Shown: positions 16,815-24,146 of the stretch, piece after piece
How positions within the stretch are numbered: the stretch's first letter is position 1
Layout of the letters: each line of letters starts with the position of its first letter
NCBI RefSeq assembly: GCF_046105845.1
Contig: NZ_CP151004.1
Direction: 5' to 3' (one strand)
DNA: 64,000 nt
Source of the DNA: Escherichia coli
GTDB taxonomy: Bacteria; Pseudomonadota; Gammaproteobacteria; Enterobacterales; Enterobacteriaceae
Translations under genes and position numbers: made by a program
The notes under the pieces: model-generated
Database searches by the model: none
Told to the model about the DNA's origin: nothing
The model's input: the letters and a program-made list of their open reading frames with translations, nothing else

Positions 16815-19511
16815 TTACTGCCAGCCGTAACGACGGCTATAGAACCCTTTCACCAACTGGGTTAACGTCATATACCCTGCCAGAATCGCAACCAGCCACG
16901 GGAAATAGCTTAACGGCAGCGCCTGCAGCTGCAGATAACTGGCCAGCGGTGAAAACGGCAATGCGATCCCGACAATCATCACGATCACGGTCATGATCAT
17001 TAACGGCCACGATGCACAGCTCTGAATAAACGGTACACGACGGGTGCGGATCATATGCACAATCAGCGTTTGCGACAGTAAGCCCACCACAAACCAGCCC
17101 GACTGGAACAGCGTTTGCGTTTCCGGCGTGTTGGCATGGAATACCCACCACATCAGGCAAAACGTCAGAATATCGAAGATCGAGCTGATCGGTCCGAAGA
17201 AGATCATAAAGCGCCCCAGATCCGCCGGATTCCAACGCTGCGGCTTTTGAATTTGCTCGTCGTCGACGTTATCAAACGGGATCGCCACCTGTGACACATC
17301 GTACAGCAGGTTCTGAATAAGCAAGTGTAACGGCAACATCGGCAGGAAGGGCAAGAAAGCACTCGCCACCAGCACGCTGAACACATTACCGAAGTTAGAG
17401 CTCGCCGTCATTTTGATGTATTTCAGCATGTTGGCGAAAGTGCGACGTCCCTCAATAACCCCCTCTTCCAGCACCATCAGGCTTTTTTCCAGCAGGATGA
17501 TATCAGCCGCTTCACGGGCAATATCTACCGCGCCGTCCACAGAAATGCCGATATCCGCAGCACGTAAGGCGGGCGCATCATTTATACCATCGCCCATAAA
17601 GCCAACCACATGCCCTTCGCGCTTCAGTAAGGTCACAATGCGTTCTTTATGCATCGGCGTCAGGCGAGCAAACAGCGTGGTGCGCTGTGCGAGATTTGCC
17701 AGTTCATCGTCAGATAGCGTTTCAATATCACTACCAATGACCACCTCTCCCGCGTCCAGCCCCACTTCATGGCACACTTTCGCTGCAACTAACTCACTGT
17801 CGCCAGTAAGGATTTTTACGGTAATGCCACTCGCTTTTAATGCCTTCAGTGCCGGAGCAGTTGTCTCTTTTGGCGGATCAAGGAAAGCAATATATCCTTC
17901 GAGGATCAGGTCGGATTCATCCGCTCGCTGGTAATCGCCTTCACGCGCTGGCAGGTATTTCGTCGCCACCGCAACCACGCGCAGCCCCTGACGATTCAGC
18001 GTATCGGTAACCCGCTTAATCTTACGCAGCATGGTGTCATCGAGTGGTACAATCTCGCCATTGTGACGCACCTGCGAACACACATTGAGGATTTCCTGCA
18101 ATGCGCCTTTGCAAACCAGCTGATGGTGTTCGGTATTTTCTGCCACTACCACCGACATCCGGCGACGCTCGAAATCAAACGGAATCTCATCAATTTTTTG
18201 CCAACGGCTGGCCAGCGAGCGCGCTGACTCTTCATCCGTACCTTCGAGCACCGCTGTATCAAGCAGGTTTTTAAGCCCGGTCTGGTAATGACTGTTCAAC
18301 CACGCGCTATGCAGCACGCGTTCGCTGGTTTTACCGGAGATATCGGTATGATTCTCCAGCACAATTTTATCCTGTGTCAGGGTGCCGGTTTTATCAGTGC
18401 ACAGAATATCCATTGCGCCAAAGTTCTGAATGGCATCCAGATGCTTGACGATCACTTTCTGTTTCGACAGCTTTACTGCGCCGCGCGCCAGCGTCGAGGT
18501 AACAATCATCGGCAACATTTCTGGCGTTAAGCCTACCGCGACCGAAAGCGCAAACAGCGCCGCTTCCCACCAGTCGCCTTTGGTGTAACCATTGATTAAC
18601 AGCACCACCGGTGCCATCACCAGCATAAAGCGAATCAGCAGCATACTGACGCGGCTGATCCCTTGCTGAAAGGCATTCGGCTCGCTTTCCTGCTCACTAA
18701 CACGCCCCGCCAGTTGACCAAACCAGGTGTTGGCTCCTGTAGCAATCACCATTGCTTGTGCCGTGCCGCTCACCACGGTGGTGCCCATAAAACACAGGGT
18801 GTCGCACTCCAGTGGATTGCTGTGCTCCGGCTGGCGAGTAGTAGCGGCTTTTTCCACGGGCAGAGACTCACCGGTTAACGACGCCTGAGCGACGAACAGA
18901 TCCCGCGCCTGCAAGATACGTAAATCTGCCGGGATCATATCCCCTGCCGCCAGTTTTATAATATCGCCGGGCACCAGCTGGTCGATCGGGATCTCCAGCC
19001 AGCCATTTTCGCCTTTGTCGTTAATTACGCGCAGCACCGTCGCGGTATTGCTGACCATCGCTTTCAGGGCATCTGCCGCTTTAGTGGAACGTGCTTCCTG
19101 AATAAAGTTCAGCAACGTAGAAATAGCGACCATTAGCGCGATAACGCCCGCGGCAAATAAATCTTCCGTGGCGTAAGAAATAGCGCCGAGAATGGTGAGT
19201 AAAATATTAAAGGGGTTGCGATAGCAGACCCATAAATGTACCCACCACGGCGACGGTTGTTGTGCGGGTAATTTATTATCACCATGTTGTTCGCGGGCAG
19301 ATTCCACTTCCGCCTGATTTAATCCTTCCGGATGGGTGTCGAACGTTTTCCACAATTCTTCTTCGGGCATCACCGCCATTTTCAGGCAATGCGCACTTAA
19401 GGACGGCGGGACCGCCGTATTCACTGTCTGCTGCGCGCCAGGCAATGGATCGCGATGAACCAGACGGGAAGGTAAATGGCGAATGAACCGGGTAAAAATT
19501 TCTTTAAACAT
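16815..19511 (-). CDS. mgtA: Mg2+-importing P-type ATPase MgtA
   Basis: 898-aa ORF with P-type ATPase motifs (DKTGTLT, TGDS, GDGINDAPAL). Confidence 0.97.
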   Translation of the reverse strand: MFKEIFTRFIRHLPSRLVHRDPLPGAQQTVNTAVPPSLSAHCLKMAVMPEEELWKTFDTHPEGLNQAEVESAREQHGDNKLPAQQPSPWWVHLWVCYRNPFNILLTILGAISYATEDLFAAGVIALMVAISTLLNFIQEARSTKAADALKAMVSNTATVLRVINDKGENGWLEIPIDQLVPGDIIKLAAGDMIPADLRILQARDLFVAQASLTGESLPVEKAATTRQPEHSNPLECDTLCFMGTTVVSGTAQAMVIATGANTWFGQLAGRVSEQESEPNAFQQGISRVSMLLIRFMLVMAPVVLLINGYTKGDWWEAALFALSVAVGLTPEMLPMIVTSTLARGAVKLSKQKVIVKHLDAIQNFGAMDILCTDKTGTLTQDKIVLENHTDISGKTSERVLHSAWLNSHYQTGLKNLLDTAVLEGTDEESARSLASRWQKIDEIPFDFERRRMSVVVAENTEHHQLVCKGALQEILNVCSQVRHNGEIVPLDDTMLRKIKRVTDTLNRQGLRVVAVATKYLPAREGDYQRADESDLILEGYIAFLDPPKETTAPALKALKASGITVKILTGDSELVAAKVCHEVGLDAGEVVIGSDIETLSDDELANLAQRTTLFARLTPMHKERIVTLLKREGHVVGFMGDGINDAPALRAADIGISVDGAVDIAREAADIILLEKSLMVLEEGVIEGRRTFANMLKYIKMTASSNFGNVFSVLVASAFLPFLPMLPLHLLIQNLLYDVSQVAIPFDNVDDEQIQKPQRWNPADLGRFMIFFGPISSIFDILTFCLMWWVFHANTPETQTLFQSGWFVVGLLSQTLIVHMIRTRRVPFIQSCASWPLMIMTVIVMIVGIALPFSPLASYLQLQALPLSYFPWLVAILAGYMTLTQLVKGFYSRRYGWQ

Positions 19512-19775
19512 AAGGAGTCCCTCCGTACTGTCTGAAACAGTACAGAAATGTCTTCAGGCGTGGCGAAGCCTTACCTGAAGGTAATAAAGCTGAGCAGGGA
19601 CGTTAAAACGTCACGGCCTTACGCATCCGGTAACGCCGTGAAAAGACGGGCTTACCGGAAAAGTTTTAATCTCCGTCGAGGGAGAGGCGTGGGATCAGGT
19701 TCCATATAACCTCCGGTAAGTGAAAAAAGCGCCGCAAATAATAAGGAGAATCCAATAATATTCGTAGCATCTATG
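19512..19775 (-). promoter_or_regulatory. mgtA 5' leader (Mg2+/proline-responsive regulatory leader containing mgtL)
   Basis: Long untranslated region between the PhoP-box promoter and mgtA ATG, containing the proline-rich mgtL ORF. Confidence 0.6.
19652..19705 (-). CDS. mgtL: mgtA leader peptide MgtL
   Basis: 17-codon [20 protein letters not shown] within the mgtA leader. Confidence 0.75.
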
Positions 19776-20837: not shown

Positions 20838-20890
20838 TCGTTTCCTGAACGATAAATTGTGATCTTCGCTGCGTTTCGGGAACGTTCCCG
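20838..20890 (+). promoter_or_regulatory. treBC promoter region with palindromic TreR-like operators and a CRP-like half site
   Basis: Palindromes tcgtttcctgaacga (20838-20852) and cgggaacgttcccg (20877-20890); aaattgtgatct resembles a CRP half-site. Confidence 0.5.
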
Positions 20891-20955
20891 TTTTTAAATT
20901 TTTCCGCGCAATATATTCTGCAGCCAACCAAAAATGTCATCTGCCATGGGGCTTT

Positions 20956-22377
20956 ATGATGAGCAAAATAAACCAAACGGATATCGATCGGTTGATTGAA
21001 CTGGTCGGCGGGCGCGGCAATATTGCGACGGTGAGCCACTGTATAACTCGCCTGCGCTTTGTCCTCAACCAACCGGCCAATGCCAGACCGAAAGAAATTG
21101 AGCAACTCCCCATGGTGAAAGGCTGTTTCACCAATGCCGGGCAATTTCAGGTGGTAATTGGCACCAACGTGGGTGATTACTATCAAGCACTGATAGCGTC
21201 AACCGGACAGGCGCAGGTTGATAAAGAGCAGGTAAAAAAAGCCGCCCGGCAGAATATGAAATGGCATGAGCAGTTGATCTCTCATTTCGCGGAGATTTTC
21301 TTCCCGTTGCTGCCCGCGTTGATTAGCGGCGGTTTGATCCTCGGTTTTCGCAATGTGATCGGCGATTTGCCCATGAGCAACGGTCAGACGCTGGCGCAAA
21401 TGTACCCTTCCCTGCAAACGATCTACGATTTTCTGTGGTTGATCGGTGAAGCGATCTTCTTCTACCTACCGGTCGGGATTTGCTGGTCAGCGGTGAAAAA
21501 AATGGGCGGTACACCGATCCTCGGTATCGTGCTTGGCGTAACGCTGGTTTCTCCACAGCTGATGAACGCTTATCTGCTCGGGCAGCAGCTGCCGGAAGTA
21601 TGGGACTTTGGCATGTTCAGCATCGCCAAAGTGGGCTATCAGGCGCAGGTGATCCCGGCACTGTTAGCCGGGCTGGCGCTGGGCGTTATTGAAACTCGCC
21701 TTAAACGCATCGTGCCGGATTACCTCTATCTGGTGGTGGTGCCCGTCTGTTCGCTGATCCTCGCGGTGTTCCTCGCCCATGCGCTGATTGGTCCGTTTGG
21801 TCGCATGATTGGCGATGGCGTTGCCTTTGCGGTACGTCACCTGATGACCGGCAGCTTTGCTCCGATTGGCGCGGCATTGTTTGGCTTCCTGTACGCCCCG
21901 CTGGTGATCACCGGCGTACATCAGACCACGCTTGCTATTGATTTGCAGATGATTCAAAGCATGGGTGGTACGCCAGTGTGGCCGCTGATTGCGCTGTCGA
22001 ATATCGCTCAGGGTTCCGCCGTGATAGGCATTATCATTTCCAGCCGCAAGCACAATGAACGCGAGATCTCCGTGCCTGCCGCTATCTCCGCCTGGCTTGG
22101 AGTCACTGAGCCTGCTATGTACGGCATCAACCTGAAATATCGCTTCCCGATGCTGTGCGCGATGGTTGGTTCTGGTCTGGCAGGATTGCTATGCGGCCTG
22201 AACGGCGTTATGGCGAATGGCATCGGCGTAGGCGGCCTGCCGGGAATTCTCTCGATTCAACCGAGCTACTGGCAGGTGTTTGCGCTGGCAATGGCTATCG
22301 CCATCATCATCCCGATTGTACTCACCTCGTTTATCTATCAGCGGAAATACCGCCTGGGCACGCTGGACATTGTTTAA
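20956..22377 (+). CDS. treB: PTS trehalose-specific EIIBC component TreB
   Basis: 473-aa ORF with EIIB cysteine motif (SHCITRLR) and a multi-pass EIIC domain. Confidence 0.95.
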   Translation: MMSKINQTDIDRLIELVGGRGNIATVSHCITRLRFVLNQPANARPKEIEQLPMVKGCFTNAGQFQVVIGTNVGDYYQALIASTGQAQVDKEQVKKAARQNMKWHEQLISHFAEIFFPLLPALISGGLILGFRNVIGDLPMSNGQTLAQMYPSLQTIYDFLWLIGEAIFFYLPVGICWSAVKKMGGTPILGIVLGVTLVSPQLMNAYLLGQQLPEVWDFGMFSIAKVGYQAQVIPALLAGLALGVIETRLKRIVPDYLYLVVVPVCSLILAVFLAHALIGPFGRMIGDGVAFAVRHLMTGSFAPIGAALFGFLYAPLVITGVHQTTLAIDLQMIQSMGGTPVWPLIALSNIAQGSAVIGIIISSRKHNEREISVPAAISAWLGVTEPAMYGINLKYRFPMLCAMVGSGLAGLLCGLNGVMANGIGVGGLPGILSIQPSYWQVFALAMAIAIIIPIVLTSFIYQRKYRLGTLDIV

Positions 22378-22385
22378 TTTTCTTC

Positions 22386-22403
22386 GGGGCGCAATTGCGC
22401 CCC
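22386..22403 (+). other. perfect 18-bp palindrome/hairpin in the treB-treC intercistronic spacer
   Basis: ggggcgcaattgcgcccc immediately after the treB stop, with no adjacent T-run. Confidence 0.5.
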
Positions 22404-22426
22404 CTCGCATTTGCAGGAATAACGTA

Positions 22427-24082
22427 ATGACTCATCTTCCCCACTGGTGGCAAAACGGCGTTATCTACCAGATTTATCCAAAGAGTTTTCAGGACACCAC
22501 GGGTAGCGGCACCGGCGATTTACGTGGCGTTATCCAGCGCCTGGACTATCTGCATAAACTGGGCGTTGATGCCATCTGGCTAACCCCCTTTTATGTCTCT
22601 CCCCAGGTCGATAACGGTTACGACGTAGCGAACTATACAGCGATTGATCCCACCTACGGCACGCTGGACGATTTTGACGAACTGGTGACACAGGCAAAAT
22701 CGCGCGGGATTCATATCATTCTCGATATGGTGTTTAACCATACCTCTACCCAACATGCCTGGTTTCGCGAGGCGCTGAACAAAGCAAGCCCTTACCGCCA
22801 GTTTTATATCTGGCGCGATGGAGAACCAGAAACGCCACCGAACAACTGGCGTTCAAAATTTGGTGGTAGCGCGTGGCGCTGGCATGCGGAAAGCGAACAG
22901 TACTATTTGCATCTCTTTGCACCAGAACAGGCGGATCTCAACTGGGAGAATCCAGCGGTACGCGCAGAGCTGAAAAAAGTCTGTGAGTTCTGGGCCGATC
23001 GTGGGGTCGACGGGTTGCGCCTGGATGTGGTGAATCTGATCTCCAAAGACCCGCGTTTCCCTGATGACCTGGATGGCGACGGGCGTCGCTTCTACACCGA
23101 CGGGCCACGAGCACACGAGTTTTTGCACGAGATGAACCGCGATGTGTTTACGCCACGCGGGTTAATGACCGTAGGTGAAATGTCCTCCACCAGCCTTGAG
23201 CATTGCCAGCGATACGCGGCACTGACAGGCAGTGAATTGTCGATGACCTTTAATTTTCATCACCTGAAAGTCGATTATCCCGGTGGTGAAAAATGGACGC
23301 TGGCTAAACCTGACTTTGTAGCGTTGAAAACATTGTTCCGCCACTGGCAACAAGGAATGCACAACGTGGCATGGAATGCCTTGTTCTGGTGTAACCACGA
23401 TCAGCCGCGCATTGTTTCTCGCTTTGGTGATGAAGGTGAATACCGCGTGCCTGCGGCAAAAATGCTGGCGATGGTGCTGCATGGCATGCAGGGAACGCCA
23501 TATATCTACCAGGGCGAAGAGATTGGCATGACTAACCCACATTTCACGCGCATTACTGACTATCGCGACGTGGAGAGCCTCAATATGTTTGCCGAGCTGC
23601 GCAACGATGGGCGTGATGCCGACGAGTTATTGGCAATCCTCGCCAGTAAATCCCGTGACAACAGCCGCACGCCCATGCAATGGAGCAACGGCGATAATGC
23701 CGGGTTTACGGCTGGCGAACCGTGGATTGGCCTGGGCGATAACTATCAGGAAATCAACGTAGAAGCCGCGCTGACCGATGAGTCCTCGGTGTTTTACACC
23801 TACCAAAAGTTAATCGCACTGCGTAAGCAAGAAGCCGTTCTGACATGGGGCGATTACCAGGATCTGCTGCCAAACAGCCCTGTATTGTGGTGCTATCGCC
23901 GTGAATGGAAGGGGCAAACCTTGTTGGTCATTGCCAACCTTAGCCGTGAGATCCAACCCTGGCAGCCAGGGAAAATGCTCGGCAACTGGCAGCTTGTGAT
24001 GCATAACTACGAAGAAGCCTCACCACAACCCTGTGCCATGACTTTACGGCCTTTTGAGGCTGTCTGGTGGTTACAGAAGTAA
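22427..24082 (+). CDS. treC: trehalose-6-phosphate hydrolase TreC (GH13)
   Basis: 551-aa ORF from ATG 22427 (MTHLPHWWQNGVIYQIYPKSF...) with alpha-amylase family motifs (GVDGLRLDVV, FWCNHD). Confidence 0.95.
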   Translation: MTHLPHWWQNGVIYQIYPKSFQDTTGSGTGDLRGVIQRLDYLHKLGVDAIWLTPFYVSPQVDNGYDVANYTAIDPTYGTLDDFDELVTQAKSRGIHIILDMVFNHTSTQHAWFREALNKASPYRQFYIWRDGEPETPPNNWRSKFGGSAWRWHAESEQYYLHLFAPEQADLNWENPAVRAELKKVCEFWADRGVDGLRLDVVNLISKDPRFPDDLDGDGRRFYTDGPRAHEFLHEMNRDVFTPRGLMTVGEMSSTSLEHCQRYAALTGSELSMTFNFHHLKVDYPGGEKWTLAKPDFVALKTLFRHWQQGMHNVAWNALFWCNHDQPRIVSRFGDEGEYRVPAAKMLAMVLHGMQGTPYIYQGEEIGMTNPHFTRITDYRDVESLNMFAELRNDGRDADELLAILASKSRDNSRTPMQWSNGDNAGFTAGEPWIGLGDNYQEINVEAALTDESSVFYTYQKLIALRKQEAVLTWGDYQDLLPNSPVLWCYRREWKGQTLLVIANLSREIQPWQPGKMLGNWQLVMHNYEEASPQPCAMTLRPFEAVWWLQK

Positions 24083-24094
24083 ATCTTCCCTAAG

Positions 24095-24124
24095 CCCCGG
24101 TAATGCCGATCATTCCGGGGTTTT
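24095..24124 (+). terminator. rho-independent terminator of treBC
   Basis: ccccggtaatgccgatcattccgggg hairpin followed by TTTTG. Confidence 0.7.
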
Positions 24125-24146
24125 GTCTGTCAGCATGTTGTTTTTG

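Follow-up and report, generated by a model that had tools for sequence, protein, structure and literature searches.

The window, by which we mean the whole 64,000-nucleotide stretch of Escherichia coli DNA that was analyzed, carries the trehalose genes treB and treC one after the other on the + strand. treB is the upstream cistron and encodes the PTS trehalose EIIBC protein of 473 residues (20956 to 22377), with its TAA stop codon at 22375-22377. treC is the downstream cistron, encodes the trehalose-6-phosphate hydrolase of 551 residues and runs from an ATG at 22427 to 24082; both assignments come from the open reading frame list and RefSeq. The stretch from 22300 to 22500 was matched in 5424 of 5426 complete E. 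coli genomes, with treB and treC annotated by RefSeq on its two sides. The arrangement in K-12 is identical, and the spacer there bears no annotated feature. Between the treB stop codon and the treC start codon lie a pyrimidine-only tract, TTTTCTTC (22378-22385), the palindrome GGGGCGCAATTGCGCCCC (22386-22403) and a gap of 23 nucleotides (22404-22426) that contains the treC Shine-Dalgarno sequence AGGAA (22415-22419), whose AGGA columns are 99-100% identical in an alignment of 78 spacers. The treB transcription start lies at 20926 on the + strand, a position converted arithmetically from the SMRT-Cappable-seq start at K-12 4466210 (Rich_TTS, 8155 reads) with the offset counted from the treB stop codon. 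The operon ends in a canonical terminator at 24095-24126, in which the hairpin CCCCGGTAATGCCGATCATTCCGGGG is followed by TTTTGT; its mapped 3' end falls at about 24126 (K-12 4463010 by Term-seq and 4463009 by SMRT-Cappable-seq). No promoter-like site for treC was found on the + strand in a consensus scan, and an Rfam scan of 19-26 kb with E-values up to 10 returned nothing at the spacer (22378-22426).

Two other features were observed upstream of treB. The Rfam scan gave a full-length match to the Mg2+ riboswitch RF01056 on the minus strand at 19605-19720 (125.8 bits, E 6e-26), which places it in the mgtA leader, ahead of an 898-residue P-type ATPase reading frame (16815-19511, minus strand). 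The palindrome CGGGAACGTTCCCG (20877-20890), located between treR and treB, is terminator-like by scan and lies at about -49 to -36 relative to the treB start. It is symmetric about a central CG, as LacI-family operators are, and is more likely to be the TreR operator than a terminator.

The treB-treC palindrome had been described in the initial annotation as a perfect 18-bp element placed 8 nucleotides after the treB stop codon and 23 nucleotides before the treC ATG with no T-tract behind it. All of this holds exactly: GGGGCGCAATTGCGCCCC is identical to its own reverse complement, the distances are correct, the sequence that follows is CTCGCATTTG, and a simple terminator scan makes no call. 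As RNA the palindrome is predicted to fold into a hairpin in which the arms GGGGCGC (22386-22392) and GCGCCCC (22397-22403) form seven G/C pairs around the four-nucleotide loop AATT (22393-22396), with a predicted free energy of -15.0 kcal/mol. Such a stem matches those of intrinsic terminators, which are rich in G/C, about 5-12 bp long and closed by a short loop. The tail is U-poor in E. coli (CUCGCAUUUG in the window, CUCGCAUUCG in K-12), with 3-4 U per 10 nucleotides and at most 4 T in 8 nucleotides, which falls below the U-tract of at least about 5 U in 8 nucleotides of an intrinsic terminator. With our own implementation of a d'Aubenton-Carafa style terminator index, in which the threshold is 0, the hairpin scored -23.5 in the window and -24.4 in K-12.

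On window statistics the palindrome alone is unremarkable. Two perfect palindromes of at least 18 bp were observed when about 0.3 are expected per 64-kb dinucleotide shuffle, and the motif GGGGCGC-N4-GCGCCCC with up to two mismatches was found once when 0.30 matches are expected in the 64-kb window. The reality of the feature therefore rests on its conservation and on the mapped RNA ends. A repeat of the REP/BIME kind was rejected, as there is one match in the 64-kb window and the motif occurs at a median of one place per genome in 5423 E. coli genomes. The only longer perfect palindrome in the window is the 24-bp AAGGCCGGAGCATGCTCCGGCCTT at 6166-6189, which is preceded by AAAACG, followed by TTTTAT and located between the convergent reading frames 3290-6145 (+) and 6199-7422 (-); it looks like a textbook bidirectional intrinsic terminator.

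The 3'-end mapping that had been proposed as a check is available in published data and is positive. The Term-seq study of MG1655 by Adams (2021; PMC7815308, supplementary file 1) gives treB a "primary" 3' end at K-12 4464728 (-), which corresponds to 22408 in the window, five nucleotides beyond the stem, with a mean of 425,606 reads; the flanking sequence printed for it is ...GCGCCCCCUCGC. The end at the treC terminator (4463010) has 64,109 reads in the same study, so that the treB end is 6.6 times higher. The treB and treC entries occur only in the sheet for LB at OD 0.4, where the operon is expressed, and both genes are absent from the table of Rho termination derived from the bicyclomycin dataset. 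The offset of +5 past the stem at the treB hairpin resembles that of +6 at the canonical treC terminator, both being the few nucleotides at which intrinsic terminators form 3' ends in vivo. A terminator serving the minus strand was also considered and rejected: on that strand GAAGAAAA would follow the hairpin, and the sole Term-seq 3' end at 44647xx is on the treBC strand. The same Term-seq tables contain a 3' end 5 nucleotides inside the treB reading frame at about 20960 (K-12 4466176; 47,785 reads, Rho call "No") and four to five more treB-internal ends, several with 24,000-49,000 reads. Pausing or premature termination near the beginning of treB could explain the early one.

A second map was reported by Yan (2018; PMC6131387, Supplementary Data 1) using SMRT-Cappable-seq, which sequences full-length 5'-triphosphate transcripts. 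In rich medium, two transcripts share the start at 4466210 (8155 reads). One contains treB (b4240) only and terminates at 4464727 (22409 in the window, so that both mapped ends lie in the tail CTCGCA at 22404-22409); 514 reads end exactly there, 6108 end in the 50 bp that follow and 54 are counted as "passing through". The other contains treB and treC and terminates at 4463009, where 1148 reads end, with 684 more ending in the next 50 bp and 309 reading through; both sites are labelled "novelTTS". The reads sum to about 6,600 at or within 50 bp past the hairpin and about 2,100 at the operon end, although the column totals are not fully reconcilable. What the counts robustly indicate is that some three quarters of the primary transcripts stop at or just past the hairpin, whereas about a quarter continue to the operon end. 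The treB-only mRNA thus outnumbers the full-length treBC mRNA, with the qualification that steady-state 3'-end counts blend the rate of formation with stability. Additionally, Dar and Sorek (2018; PMC5927463) included treC-treB among the 390 operons analyzed for differential decay (table S2), judged it to be without an internal terminator motif and left it out of the 47 that they report as differentially decaying (table S3). The earlier proposal that a stable hairpin inside the operon affects RNA processing or stability, or the levels of treB relative to treC, is supported by the mapped ends together with the conservation described below.

To examine conservation, treB loci were collected from 80 species-level Enterobacteriaceae genomes, the treB-treC spacers were extracted and 78 of them were aligned; the taxa covered are the Enterobacteriaceae and Edwardsiella, taken from the closest 120 protein matches. 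The hairpin was found at the same position in essentially all of the Enterobacteriaceae spacers sampled, and its 7-bp stem is the sole consensus structure predicted by RNAalifold from the 78-spacer alignment. Column identity is 97% in the stem, 65% in the loop and about 70% in the flanks. Across 76 distinct sequences the helix is 98.9% paired, with double (compensatory) changes at three of the seven pairs, and none of 500 shuffles matched the observed pairing or covariation. Such changes are not numerous and group by clade, so the covariation is best described as good but not overwhelming. In several genera the stem has been replaced at the same position by a different complementary one: GGGGCC..GGCCCC in Buttiauxella, GGGGTGC..GCACCCC in C. 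gillenii, AGGCGCGG..CCGCGCCT in Franconibacter, GGGGAGCG..CGCTCCCC in Cronobacter and ACGGGCGG..CCCGCCCGT in Mangrovibacter. The loop is four nucleotides long and occurs in 19 variants; AATT, which is needed for a perfect 18-bp palindrome, occurs in only 5 of 74 distinct relatives. The symmetry noted in E. coli is therefore real but incidental, and what is conserved is a 7-bp stem with a four-nucleotide loop. Pairing that is restored by compensatory change while the loop is free to vary is the signature of a structured RNA under selection. Because three of the stem pairs show such changes, the selected object is, as far as the alignment can tell, an RNA (or single-strand) hairpin of seven G/C pairs and a tetraloop and not a DNA dyad.

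The surroundings of the hairpin were compared as well. In the 74 distinct relatives the distance from the treB stop codon to the hairpin is 5-15 nucleotides (median 9), and the eight positions before the hairpin are 58-89% T with the remainder mostly C, except for position -1, which is 32% T and 66% C. On the downstream side, positions +1, +2, +7 and +8 are T in 68-85% of the 74 sequences. The terminator index exceeds 0 in 24 of the 78 spacers and has a median of -0.7, that is, at the threshold, and runs of U5-U7 are found in the tails of several relatives (loci L055 of Enterobacter sp. kpr-6, L080 of ENT03, L058 and L047).

The hairpin has been altered or lost in some lineages. At the Salmonella enterica locus (L082, 3920-3968), the sole Salmonella locus examined, the 3' arm is GCCTCCC in place of GCGCCCC, which introduces one C-C mismatch and one G-U pair; the predicted free energy is -7.2 kcal/mol and the tail, AACGCACUUG, is U-poor. 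From this one locus the hairpin appears to be decaying in the Salmonella lineage. An equivalent hairpin was looked for in Edwardsiella and is absent. Enlarged spacers were observed in three genomes. In Mangrovibacter phragmitis (L085, 3920-4140) the spacer has grown to 221 nucleotides, with two almost identical copies of another hairpin, TCACGGGCGGCTTACCCGCCCGT and TCACGGGCAGCTTACCCGTCCGT, on either side of an insert that carries a canonical hairpin and T-run terminator; this arrangement resembles the outcome of a duplication or insertion at the hairpin. The spacers of Buttiauxella sp. B2 (L061) and B. agrestis (L065) measure 129 and 98 nucleotides, and the former holds a REP-like sequence, GTAGGTCGGATTAGCGTTAGCGACATCCGAC, and a new hairpin, GAGGCC-GTGAT-GGCCTC, the ancestral GGGGCC hairpin having been replaced. 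Within E. coli, the 41 nucleotides around the hairpin are 100% identical in 4963 of 5423 genomes, and a recurrent variant changes an outer C to T, which retains the pairing as G-U. One isolate, SL124 (L088, NZ_CM194971.1), carries a 16-bp deletion between short repeats (GCGCCCCCTCGCATTT, or equivalently in another register), which takes away the 3' arm and leaves the treC Shine-Dalgarno sequence in place; since this deletion occurs in nature, the hairpin is dispensable.

We favor the explanation, to which we give a probability of about 0.5, that the hairpin is a leaky, U-poor terminator-like element that both generates the treB 3' end and protects the message. Transcripts would begin at the treB promoter and the majority would end 5-6 nucleotides or a few tens of nucleotides beyond the hairpin, giving a treB-only mRNA, while a minority would continue through treC to the canonical terminator beyond it. 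The result would be more treB than treC message from a single promoter. The hairpin would act as an intra-operon attenuator that was ancestrally nearer to a real terminator and is perhaps factor-assisted in E. coli, and the same structure would then guard the treB message against 3'-to-5' exonucleases. Judged by its position, the hairpin probably gives rise to the treB 3' end, and we infer that some of these ends come from termination rather than trimming; the two routes are not mutually exclusive. It is presumed that protein ratios track the treB:treC mRNA ratio. Termination had been left aside earlier for want of a T-tract; the tail is indeed U-poor in E. coli, but many relatives have U-rich tails that make the hairpin a borderline to good terminator. 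Leaky termination is therefore a live mechanism even though E. coli has no T-tract. In favor of termination, neither a Rho region nor differential decay has been reported for treBC (PMC7815308, PMC5927463). Against precise intrinsic termination, the long-read ends look diffuse, with far fewer reads at the site (514) than within the next 50 bp (6108). The degraded stem in Salmonella, the absence of the hairpin from Edwardsiella, the SL124 deletion and the judgment that treBC is free of terminators (PMC5927463) also count against the preferred reading.

The main competitor is a purely post-transcriptional exonuclease barrier of the malE-malF/puf type, in which the polymerase reads through into treC. 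Endonucleolytic cleavage downstream, or diffuse termination, would be followed by trimming by PNPase or RNase II that stalls a few nucleotides 3' of the stem, leaving a stable treB-only decay intermediate. A stable hairpin with a U-poor tail in E. coli suits this model, as do a 3' end a few nucleotides beyond the stem, which is where a stalled exonuclease would leave it, and SMRT-Cappable-seq ends that are far more numerous over the next 50 bp than at the site itself. The sequence also shows AU-rich flanks and a context resembling an RNase E site, RN|WUU (UAA|UUUU), and the mechanism is well established for E. coli operons (PMC5927463). The model has to accommodate the fact that treBC was analyzed and did not emerge as differentially decaying in that same study, and that neither treB nor treC has a reported Rho-dependent region (PMC7815308); it also leaves the conserved U-richness after the stem in the relatives unexplained. 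We regard the pure barrier as a tentative alternative and favor a weak terminator-like element combined with a stabilizing hairpin over it. A quite different possibility is that the hairpin is now functionless in E. coli, a decaying remnant of an ancestral terminator. The 3' end would then be an incidental by-product of mRNA decay that leaves protein output unaffected. The erosion of the U-tract in Escherichia and Citrobacter, the eroded stem at the Salmonella locus and the existence of a natural deletion strain would all fit a remnant. This reading is unlikely given the near-uniformity of the 41-nucleotide region within E. coli, where the common variant keeps its pairing, a stem that is much better conserved across genera than the loop or flanks, and a treB-only transcript that is the major species.

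Three further readings assign the hairpin a function of another kind. It could be a translation-sensing attenuator by which treC transcription is gated by treB translation without a dedicated regulator. A ribosome terminating on treB close behind RNA polymerase would cover the 5' arm and permit read-through into treC, and the hairpin would fold and transcripts would end when TreB translation or membrane insertion lags. Such occlusion is conceivable because the hairpin starts 5-15 nucleotides (8 in E. coli) past the treB stop codon in every genus examined, but we consider the model improbable. It could also be a translational device in which the upstream pyrimidine tract pairs with the treC Shine-Dalgarno sequence, the hairpin serves as a clamp and treC is translated only once a ribosome completing treB has opened the fold. 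The minimum-energy fold of the 81-nucleotide region does pair UUUCU with AGGAA, and the pyrimidine tract is conserved. The pairing was nevertheless rejected on ensemble probabilities and pair counts: the probability of Shine-Dalgarno pairing in the ensemble is low (median 0.05 over the 78 spacers, 0.14 in E. coli), pairing in the helix reaches only 77.6%, largely through G-U and A-U pairs and without convincing covariation, and RNAalifold predicts no such helix. This model would also leave the mapped 3' end without an explanation, and the translational device is accordingly very unlikely. Least likely of all is a site that acts as DNA, through binding of a dimeric protein, recombination or replication. 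The perfect 18-bp dyad of E. coli and the highly conserved stem sequence invite such a reading, but the center of the dyad varies freely (the dyad is perfect only in the few relatives with an AATT loop), stems have been swapped for different and still complementary sequences, the motif is single-copy in E. coli, and the element lies within a transcription unit exactly at mapped RNA ends.

The treB hairpin would thus be an ordinary in-operon terminator or stabilizer that lowers the treC message relative to that of treB, a reading adopted because a conserved hairpin adjoins the place where the published maps end most tre transcripts. The treB 3' end is already present in two genome-wide tables (PMC7815308, PMC6131387), and the element does not open a new class. 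A full-text literature search for a treB/treC hairpin, with the 1994/95 tre papers outside its coverage, found no paper on the element, and treB is not mentioned in PMC6156199. The significance of the hairpin is that it would explain how a single promoter controlled by TreR and CRP can give unequal messages for the transporter (treB) and the hydrolase (treC). Additionally, the relatives form a graded series that runs from a good terminator in some genera through the U-poor hairpin of E. coli to the eroded stem of Salmonella, and this series could be used to study how the strength of an in-operon terminator is tuned.

Leaky intrinsic terminators and attenuators within operons include the rplL-rpoB attenuator and T1 of rpsU-dnaG. 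The treB hairpin is likewise a G/C hairpin between cistrons with a 3' end just after it and partial read-through, its relatives have U-rich tails, and the site itself was classed as a "novelTTS" (PMC6131387). It differs from these terminators in that the E. coli tail, with its 3-4 U per 10 nucleotides, fails the consensus criteria. Within the window, the treB hairpin and the terminator at 6166-6189 are both perfect G/C-rich palindromes directly after a stop codon. The latter has an A-tract upstream, a T-tract downstream and convergent genes, whereas the former has a T/C tract upstream, no downstream T-run and a co-oriented gene 23 nucleotides away. The comparison with the malE-malF REP, the puf hairpins and the structures of PMC5927463 is also close, since in each case a stable intercistronic stem-loop ends a more abundant upstream segment. 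Hairpins of the malE-malF/puf type are expected to give more upstream than downstream message, as is seen for treB and treC, and the treB hairpin, a stable structure, lies 5 nucleotides before the dominant 3' end. In contrast to the malE-malF/puf type, it is single, short, single-copy and unrelated to REP/BIME elements, and treBC is not reported to decay differentially (PMC5927463). The processed 3' ends of Rho-terminated transcripts (Dar and Sorek 2018, PMC6061677) likewise combine a hairpin free of a U-tract with a sharp Term-seq end, but treB and treC have no listed Rho region (PMC7815308) and a translated gene begins only 23 nucleotides away. The E. coli tail falls short of an intrinsic-terminator U-tract, and the protective class calls for an upstream cistron that outlives the downstream one; the element is therefore filed no further than as a terminator-like hairpin at which a 3' end forms.
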